59,292 bases of DNA from a virus (Duplodnaviria > Heunggongvirae > Uroviricota > Caudoviricetes): the IMG/VR virus record IMGVR_UViG_2850784384_000007; one strand, 5' to 3'. The notes beneath the pieces were generated by a model. It was given only the letters and a program-made list of their open reading frames with translations, was not told where the DNA came from and ran no database searches. The first letter of the stretch is position 1. Each line of letters opens with the position of its first letter. Below, piece by piece: positions 36,315 to 36,942 of this stretch. The position numbers and the translations under genes were made by a program.

Positions 36315-36644
36315 ATGAACTACACTATCGAATACTACAGTGAAGAGGTCCGACTGGAGGTCGATCAGCTTCCATTGAGTATGCGTGCCAGATACCAGCA
36401 TCTTGTTGAACGCATGAAGGTATACGGCAGCAATCTCGGAGAACCTCACACCAGCGCCTTTGGTGACGGGCTTTTCGAACTCAGAATTAAAGGCAACGAT
36501 GGGATCGCGCGTGTTTTTTACTGCACTCTGACAGGGAAACGCATCATCATGCTGCATAGTTTTGTAAAGAAAGCGCAGAAAACACCGCCAGCCGAACGCA
36601 AGAAAGCTGAAACCAGAATGAAGGAGGTTAAGCATGACTGGTAA
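36315..36644 (+). CDS. type II toxin, Gp49/HigB-like (RelE/ParE superfamily)
   Basis: 109 aa from ATG at 36315; ..FELRIKGNDGIARVFYCTLTGKRIIMLHSFVKKAQKTPPAE.. typical of phage Gp49-like toxins; 11-nt overlap with downstream HTH gene. Confidence 0.65.
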   Translation: MNYTIEYYSEEVRLEVDQLPLSMRARYQHLVERMKVYGSNLGEPHTSAFGDGLFELRIKGNDGIARVFYCTLTGKRIIMLHSFVKKAQKTPPAERKKAETRMKEVKHDW

Positions 36645-36942
36645 ACGCACTCTCCCCACCATGACACACGACGAAATGGCAGCCAAATGGATGGAAGACC
36701 CGGCTTTTAAAGCAGAATACGACGCTATCGCTGACGAATTCGCACTGCTTGATGAAATGCTGGCAGCACGCAAAGAAGCTGGCTTAACTCAGGCTGAAGT
36801 TGCCGAGCGAATGGGAACAAAAGCGACCGCGATCACCAGAATGGAAAGTAATCTCGCATCAGGTATCAGCGGCCCATCATTTGCCACACTAAAAAAATTC
36901 GCCCGCGCTACTGGAAAAAAACTCCAGATCCGCTTCGTTTAA
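36634..36942 (+). CDS. XRE-family HTH antitoxin (HigA-like)
   Basis: 102 aa with HTH (GLTQAEVAERMGTKATAITRMES). Confidence 0.65.
   Translation: MTGKRTLPTMTHDEMAAKWMEDPAFKAEYDAIADEFALLDEMLAARKEAGLTQAEVAERMGTKATAITRMESNLASGISGPSFATLKKFARATGKKLQIRFV

Follow-up and report, generated by a model that had tools for sequence, protein, structure and literature searches.

Gp49-like toxins, the family COG4679/DUF891 of the RelE superfamily, have been assigned to the Tad-Ata toxin–antitoxin (TA) systems (Makarova et al. 2009, PMC2701414), and those of N15 and SXT are experimentally defined, stabilising systems (Dziewit 2007, as cited in PMC2701414). In the HigBA2 system of Acinetobacter baumannii the toxin has ribonuclease activity, HigA acts as repressor of the promoter and HigB as co-repressor, one transcript carries both genes, and an unstable plasmid is stabilised by the module (PMC5906591); according to the same authors, how the ratio of toxin to antitoxin is set in operons that begin with the toxin gene was unknown (PMC5906591). 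The HigB1 toxin of Mycobacterium tuberculosis is itself a ribosome-dependent mRNase that belongs to a toxin–antitoxin–chaperone (TAC) system. Its pocket residues surround the A-site codon and line the mRNA pocket, three of them (R68, R77 and K95) match K54, R61 and R81 of RelE, the change K95A abolishes toxicity, and the long α3 helix is typical of Gp49-like toxins (PMC9098466). The locus described here is a pair of overlapping genes for a Gp49-type toxin and a helix-turn-helix (HTH) protein in the IMG/VR virus record IMGVR_UViG_2850784384_000007 (Caudoviricetes), a stretch of 59,292 nucleotides that is referred to as the window.

With a probability of about 0.88, the pair is a type II TA operon of the Gp49-type HigB/HigA class (Tad-Ata, COG4679/DUF891), and it forms a self-contained cassette of ~0.7 kb (about 36279-36970) within a lambdoid, defective Shigella flexneri prophage, whose early genes run on the opposite strand. 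The exact proteins already have names at NCBI, where the toxin is a [quoted passage not shown] and the antitoxin a helix-turn-helix regulator. The evidence for this assignment comes from the family and fold of the toxin, from the conservation of the pair across species and from the signals that accompany it.

The toxin, the antitoxin and their linkage

An earlier note on this DNA, made from the letters alone, had described a 109-aa toxin-like open reading frame (ORF) of the RelE/ParE superfamily that overlaps by 11 nt a 102-aa ORF of the XRE-HTH type. Both descriptions are borne out by the coordinates (the overlap covers 36634-36644) and by the matches of the two proteins, and the profile searches that the note had proposed as a check gave the toxin no placement outside the RelE/ParE/Gp49 families. 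The toxin matches Pfam Gp49 (PF05973) with an E value of 3.2e-25 and 88.4 bits (cut-off 23.9), over profile positions 2-90 of 90, and PHROG 2523 over its full length (E 5e-45), a family that PHROGs labels "unknown function". The protein database contains 2292 homologues at E < 1e-5, nearly all of them of 109-111 aa; homologues that are 60-70% identical occur across Beta- and Gammaproteobacteria and beyond, and PF05973 is present in all 120 toxin homologues among the matches listed. Against NCBIfam, the toxin and the antitoxin gave weak RelE/ParE-family and HTH matches, all of them under the cut-offs (TIGR02683 at 19.8 bits, cut-off 62.85; HTH models of the RstR, HipB and MqsA types), and no equivalog name applies. 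The canonical HigB family PF05015 (HigB-like_toxin; Proteus vulgaris / Rts1 type) was not matched at E <= 0.01 in the Pfam scan, so that the name HigB is valid here only in the broad Gp49-type sense. A longer ORF of 224 aa with a TTG start (35970-36644) was rejected as a gene, since the N-terminus of the family, MNYTIEYY, sets the start at 36315.

The structural comparisons agree with this placement. Among all PDB sequences, the best match of the toxin is HigB of Streptococcus pneumoniae (6af3_A, E 6.5e-5), and that of the antitoxin is its partner HigA (6af3_B, E 1e-3); in other words, the separate searches with the two proteins led to the partners of a single complex. For the toxin, an AlphaFold2 model based on 32 members of the family reached a predicted local distance difference test (pLDDT) score of 91.5 and a predicted template-modelling (pTM) score of 0.85; its layout is RelE-like and consists of a short strand at the N-terminus, two helices, four strands of greater length and, at the C-terminus, a long helix (residues 92-106). 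When this model was compared with the PDB by Foldseek, the first rank was taken by S. pneumoniae HigB (6af4, E 5e-6, template-modelling (TM) score 0.74), followed by M. tuberculosis HigB1, both ribosome-bound (7nbu, E 7e-5) and free (7awk), and further down by YafQ, RelE, Vibrio cholerae HigB2 and YoeB, with the ParE proteins much lower.

In the profile alignment, toxin residues R57, R66 and K85 correspond to R68, R77 and K95 of HigB1, the equivalents of the catalytic Arg/Arg/Lys set, and E55, Q88 and K89 correspond to E66, Q98 and K99; within the family profile, K85 aligns with the alanine of the K95A mutant chain of HigB1. Five of these residues (E55, R57, R66, K85 and K89) are invariant in the 32-sequence family alignment, and the toxin of the window retains each of the 34 residues that do not vary in the aligned family, the catalytic-pocket equivalents included.

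The antitoxin consists of an N-terminal segment of ~35 aa followed by an XRE/HTH_3 domain, which is matched by Pfam HTH_3 with E 3.4e-11 and 43.5 bits (cut-off 23); PHROGs labels this HTH family "transcriptional regulator". The protein is identical to a copy found on 1000 or more contigs. In the lineage of phage PhiR5_2 and Escherichia coli S1-CAM-02-A, the N-terminal two-thirds of the toxin and residues 16-24 of the antitoxin have diverged together and the remainder is nearly identical, a pattern which hints that the N-terminus of the antitoxin determines the specificity of toxin binding. In the same phage and strain the start codon of the toxin gene is ATA, and annotators call a shortened toxin of 76 aa.

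The linkage between the two genes is close. When one genome per species was taken, at least 562 stretches encoding a relative of the toxin were obtained, and the best 80 loci were examined; an antitoxin homologue lies directly downstream on the same strand in 79 of these 80 loci from other species (the sole exception is cut by a contig end), although the loci are homologous and the counts are therefore non-independent trials. The overlap measures 4-17 nt in 71 of 73 related loci. Within the Enterobacteriaceae, the ratio of non-synonymous to synonymous substitution rates (dN/dS) against the allele of the window is 0.02-0.16 for the toxin and 0.03-0.11 for the antitoxin. Taken together, the linkage of the pair and the low dN/dS values imply that both genes are real, linked and under purifying selection.

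Predicted promoter and operator, and translation signals

The start of the cassette has a compact arrangement (Table 1), in which a palindrome lies within the spacer of a predicted promoter and overlaps its -10 hexamer. The palindrome ATAAC-N6-GTTAT is invariant in the six enterobacterial cassettes; its core, TAACA-N4-TGTTA, was compared in 76 loci from other species, of which 65 show no mismatch and all 76 show two or fewer, and in 72 of them it begins 23-25 nt before the start codon. The consensus anchored on the palindrome reads cTTG, a 17-nt spacer that contains the palindrome, TAttAT, 6-7 nt, and ATG or GTG; within the -10-like element, A2 is present in 76/76 loci and T6 in 75/76. The candidate operator is kept with the pair among unrelated neighbours, which argues that it belongs to the pair itself.

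The two genes differ in their translation signals. A motif resembling a Shine-Dalgarno (SD) sequence precedes the toxin gene in none of 76 loci and the antitoxin gene in all 73, against a background rate of 11% of random 15-mers. From the spacing, transcription is predicted to start at or beside the toxin ATG, which would leave the toxin mRNA with no leader or next to none. E. coli has few known examples of leaderless genes, among them lambda cI and paaR2 (PMC8630535), and in the literature on leaderless higB no direct study was found. The conserved spacing of the predicted promoter, operator and start codon offers a cheap and testable prediction on translation control in TA operons that begin with the toxin gene.

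At the opposite end, a GC-rich hairpin is conserved in all six cassettes at the point where their common homology stops. As RNA it has a folding energy of -18.5 kcal/mol (z = -3.2); no T-run follows it, and a terminator scan of 35800-37300 found none on the plus strand.

Table 1. Features of the TA cassette and of its neighbours in the window.
Feature	Position	Strand	Remarks
Toxin gene, Gp49-type HigB (RelE/ParE superfamily)	ATG 36315, TAA 36642-36644	+	109 aa, contains RIIMLHSFVKKAQKTP
Antitoxin gene, HigA-like, XRE/HTH_3	ATG 36634, TAA 36940-36942	+	102 aa
-35-like hexamer TTGTGC, predicted promoter	36279..36284	+	17 nt upstream of the -10-like hexamer; TTG conserved in the 76-locus consensus
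Palindrome ATAAC-N6-GTTAT, candidate HigA operator	36289..36304		within the promoter spacer, overlaps the -10
-10-like hexamer TATGTT	36302..36307	+	7 nt before the toxin ATG
Shine-Dalgarno sequence AAGGAGG, strong	36621..36627	+	6 nt before the antitoxin ATG
GC-rich hairpin GCGCCGTCA-TTC-TGGCGGCGC, 3' end of the cassette	36950..36970		inverted repeat
Recombination breakpoint interval inside the toxin ORF	36426..36433		from the comparison of sites between A8-type and VL40-type cassettes
Codon 87, GCG (Ala), private T87A	36573..36575	+	β4-α3 loop, between K85 and Q88/K89
NinE	36984-37160	-	Pfam E 3e-41; convergent with the pair
NinB	37157-37567	-	Pfam E 2.5e-56; convergent with the pair
phiTE_015-like ORF	37564-37857	-	
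Primase/helicase C-terminal fragment	37917-38096	-	cut by IS911 at about 38100
Ash-Rha family pseudogene	35433-36293	-	divergent from the toxin gene; outside the TA system
77-aa ORF	35203-35436	-	
Replication genes	32031-35222	-	

Prophage context and the chimeric toxin gene

All the genes that flank the pair are on the minus strand, and the antisense orientation given in the earlier note is correct. The same note had placed the pair between ninB and a decayed Rha-like gene, within the nin region. The decay of the Rha gene is real, the adjoining gene on the other side is ninE, with ninB one gene further, and what is present is a fragment of a nin region, which here forms a recombinant joint with the Ash-Rha/replication module of another prophage type instead of a normal nin region. 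Beyond the Rha side, the minus strand carries the 77-aa ORF, an initiator-like gene, a DnaC/IstB-like ATPase, DnaB and Q.

The Ash-Rha pseudogene shares 99.3% identity with its intact counterpart in E. coli O121, which encodes 286 aa with the domains Ash (PF10554, at 15-109) and Rha (PF09669, at 120-209). Two lesions distinguish it: the codon at 35943-35945 is TAG, where E. coli O121 has CAG, a nonsense codon that falls between the two domains, and the codon at 36288-36290 is ATA, where strain A8 of E. coli has the ATG start; because of this lost start and the nonsense codon the Rha gene is dead. The suggestion that the pair displaced the 5' end of this gene had to be abandoned, given that E. 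coli A8 and its relatives show the same adjacency with an intact Rha gene. In the A8-type arrangement the Rha ATG overlaps the TA operator, which indicates that the adjacency is ancestral and not an insertion scar, and that the gene decayed by point lesions in a pre-existing arrangement. A 276-aa antisense ORF (35943-36773) was also rejected, as it consists of the Ash part of the Rha pseudogene continuing into non-coding antisense sequence.

The cassette is rare, being found in 31 of 5426 complete E. coli genomes, always on the chromosome, and its surroundings are of two kinds: the nin region, where it follows ninE on the downstream side (e.g., strain VL40), or a position between Rha/Ash genes upstream of the replication genes (e.g., strain A8). 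The window combines both. At sites where the A8-type and VL40-type cassettes differ, it mostly follows A8 up to 36425, and from 36426 to 37030 it agrees with VL40 at every position but 36573; beyond the switch, 36434 is the first site with an A8-specific difference. This switch means that the toxin ORF is chimeric, with its 5' third mostly of the A8 type and the rest, through ninE, of the VL40 type. Read from these sites, a crossover at 36426-36433 joined the nin fragment (primase/helicase fragment, phiTE_015-like ORF, ninB and ninE) to the Ash-Rha/replication module of another prophage, which left two replication modules in tandem. The small accessory cassette served as the homology for the crossover that fused the two prophage modules, and its chimeric toxin ORF illustrates cleanly how such a cassette can provide the site of exchange in lambdoid mosaicism. 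Among the complete E. coli genomes, none reaches a coverage of 80% over 35400-37600; a 4.51-Mb chromosome record (CP084879.1) and contigs from 20 or more samples share the gene order of the window.

The tandem modules lie on the minus strand (32031-38100); the upstream one is the primase/helicase remnant and the downstream one comprises the initiator-like, DnaC-like and DnaB genes. Some S. flexneri assemblies have a longer primase/helicase gene (at least 586 aa in one).

The only difference between the allele of the window and the dominant S. flexneri allele of the toxin is T87A, and the two alleles are present on 33 and 365 contigs, respectively. This substitution could attenuate the toxin.

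Traces of the cassette exist elsewhere. A 73-nt relic of the 3' end of the antitoxin gene (window 36874-36946) occurs in about 40 records of Stx2a phages, and in the Stx phage vB_EcoP_phi346 it lies in an antisense slot, flanked by anti-repressor genes, where other antitoxin-like genes are now found; the arrangement suggests a swap site for TA or accessory cassettes.

As judged from its gene content, the window is an ipaH-bearing, IS-riddled Shigella prophage region, and the prophage is defective, lambdoid and of S. flexneri; the species is assigned because of the NCBI protein names together with the IpaH and insertion sequence (IS) content. An IpaH effector gene occupies 1060-2823 on the plus strand (NEL and LRR_TTSS domains, a Pfam-confirmed E3-ligase effector), and a second IpaH-like ORF, identified from its N-terminal sequence only, lies at 58612-59292 on the minus strand, at the right-hand end of the window. 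Copies of IS600, IS911 and IS2 are many, e.g., at 24607-25425, 27178-27969, 38145-39349, 39479-40608 and 42372-43576.

Probable role of the cassette and comparison with known systems

The TA module is most likely functional. By analogy with the described relatives, HigB would arrest translation as an mRNA endonuclease that depends on the ribosome, and HigA would neutralise it through direct binding, probably via its N-terminal ~35 residues; a HigA dimer would, through the HTH domain, repress the operon at the palindrome that overlaps the -10. In this scheme the toxin would be translated from its leaderless or near-leaderless mRNA, which lacks an SD sequence, and the strong AAGGAGG site would keep the antitoxin in excess despite the toxin-first order. 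The cassette is probably a selfish or stabilising module by which cells that lose the prophage segment are penalised, and exclusion of other phages may be a further effect. Stabilisation or selfish persistence is probably its role in the defective prophage, and this is the least certain step of the account. An intact TA module within a decaying prophage, with ipaH genes about 33 and 22 kb away, could help to retain the region in the S. flexneri chromosome.

Several points weigh against this account, in addition to the non-independence of the homologous loci mentioned above. The -35 and -10 hexamers are weak, and a strict sigma-70 consensus scan of 35800-37300 returned no promoter at the cassette; the promoter is proposed because of its conservation across species. 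In the literature, including that on lambdoid nin regions, no experimental study of this pair was found. Gp49-type toxins are not always toxic, as M. tuberculosis HigB2 and HigB3 are non-toxic (PMC9098466), and position 87, which belongs to the catalytic loop and is Ala here, holds T or S in each of the other 31 aligned members of the family. With regard to an anti-phage role, PADLOC gave no full match to a defence system, the matches being a partial one to the candidate defence protein NsnC (residues 49-99 to the NsnC C-terminus, E 5e-9) and generic HTH ones.

Some of these points would fit an attenuated or dead relic, that is, intact genes whose toxin is non-toxic, either because of T87A or intrinsically, as in HigB2 and HigB3, and which travel as passengers of a decaying prophage. 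The heavy degradation of the prophage (the Rha pseudogene, the IS911 and IS600 insertions) and the loss of the toxin ATG in the sister lineage PhiR5_2/S1-CAM point the same way. Nevertheless, a relic is improbable, as both ORFs are full length, the family-invariant residues are complete (34/34), the dN/dS values are low (0.02-0.16), T87A is one conservative change at a position where M. tuberculosis HigB1 has Q, and the antitoxin is kept identical to a very widespread copy. A different possibility is that the main role of the cassette is abortive infection or superinfection exclusion on behalf of the lysogen, rather than prophage stabilisation. The moron-like placement, the predicted promoter of its own, the antisense orientation to early genes in every lambdoid context examined and the accessory swap site suggested by phi346 agree with such a role, and TAC systems with a Gp49-type HigB are reported in a preprint to defend against phages (bioRxiv 10.1101/2024.02.24.581848). 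This role is regarded as possible but on balance unlikely, given the PADLOC result, the fact that chromosomes and plasmids outside phages carry the family just as commonly, and the characterisation of the N15 and A. baumannii relatives as stabilisation modules.

The two remaining alternatives concern the identity of the proteins, and both are very improbable. ParE has the fold of the RelE/ParE superfamily, and several ParE structures, ParE2 among them, do appear low in the Foldseek list (ranks 24-28 and 42), as would be expected if the toxin were a ParE-like gyrase poison instead of an mRNA endonuclease; their TM scores are nevertheless < 0.5, the best matches, by fold as well as by sequence, are without exception HigB-type mRNases, and the toxin of the window has the R/R/K equivalents and the motif F-x-K-x-x-Q-K-T-P, which it shares with HigB1 and S. 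pneumoniae HigB. Similarly, the HTH protein might be chiefly a phage regulator (e.g., of the Ash-Rha or antirepressor genes), with the Gp49-like protein as a non-toxic cofactor and no TA system at all, a view with which the overlap between the palindrome and the divergent Rha start in A8-type phages and the two PHROGs labels are compatible; it is contradicted by at least 76 species, plasmids included, in which the pair recurs beside unrelated genes and the operator is equally far from the toxin start.

Returning to the TA operon as the preferred reading, its architecture can be extended into a more tentative proposal, held at somewhat less than even odds: the whole HigBA subfamily would produce its toxin from a leaderless mRNA, use the promoter spacer and the -10 as the HigA operator and equip the antitoxin with a strong SD sequence; the cassette would be a piece of portable homology in lambdoid phages; and the antisense placement could let anti-terminated early transcription silence the cassette at induction.

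Compared with the described systems, the pair is an ordinary, correctly annotated member of a well-studied TA family, of which the family, fold, mechanism, toxin-first order, autoregulation and presence in prophages are all already established. The HigB-HigA complex of S. pneumoniae (6AF3/6AF4) shares with it the motif F-x-K-[KR]-T-Q-K-T-P, the toxin-first order and an XRE HTH antitoxin, whereas that system is Gram-positive and chromosomal, its deposited toxin chain has 141 aa, and the identity in the full-length Foldseek alignment is 18-19%. HigB1 of M. tuberculosis (Rv1955; 7AWK/7NBU) has the same Gp49-like RelE fold, long C-terminal helix and aligned pocket residues, with a Foldseek identity of about 22-24%; its K58 and N73 are S47 and D62 in the window, and its TAC system needs a SecB-like chaperone, whereas the pair of the window has no chaperone gene.

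Gp49 of phage N15, the namesake of PF05973, is 45% identical over toxin residues 15-105, the first 14 residues being unmatched. Like the pair of the window, N15 gp49/gp48, which is grouped with the Tad-Ata systems of Paracoccus pAMI2 and SXT, is prophage-borne, places the toxin gene first and has an Xre-type antitoxin; N15, however, is a linear plasmid prophage in which a stabilising role is obvious, while the present pair resides in an integrated, defective lambdoid prophage. HigBA2 of A. baumannii (pAB120) likewise has a Gp49-domain toxin upstream of a ~100-aa HTH antitoxin, and differs in being plasmid-borne and in the length of its toxin gene (357 bp vs 330 bp). The closest homologue found on an Acinetobacter plasmid, of 109 aa and 63% identical, may be a locus other than HigBA2.

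The nearest relatives are the same cassettes recorded in Shigella and E. coli phages. The cassettes of Shigella phages POCJ13 and 75/02 Stx, of E. coli phage PhiR5_2 and of the 31 complete E. coli genomes, annotated in the phages as RelE/ParE family toxin or HigB/HigA, are 79-97% identical in DNA over the whole cassette and have the same operator, the 11-nt overlap, the 3' hairpin and an orientation that is always antisense to their neighbours. Their flanks vary (ninE, Ant, DUF4222, Rha), whereas the cassette of the window is an A8/VL40 chimera with T87A. What this locus contributes, next to those relatives, is a set of small testable additions to a known type of system: a chimeric toxin ORF, the T87A allele and an architecture that predicts leaderless translation of the toxin.

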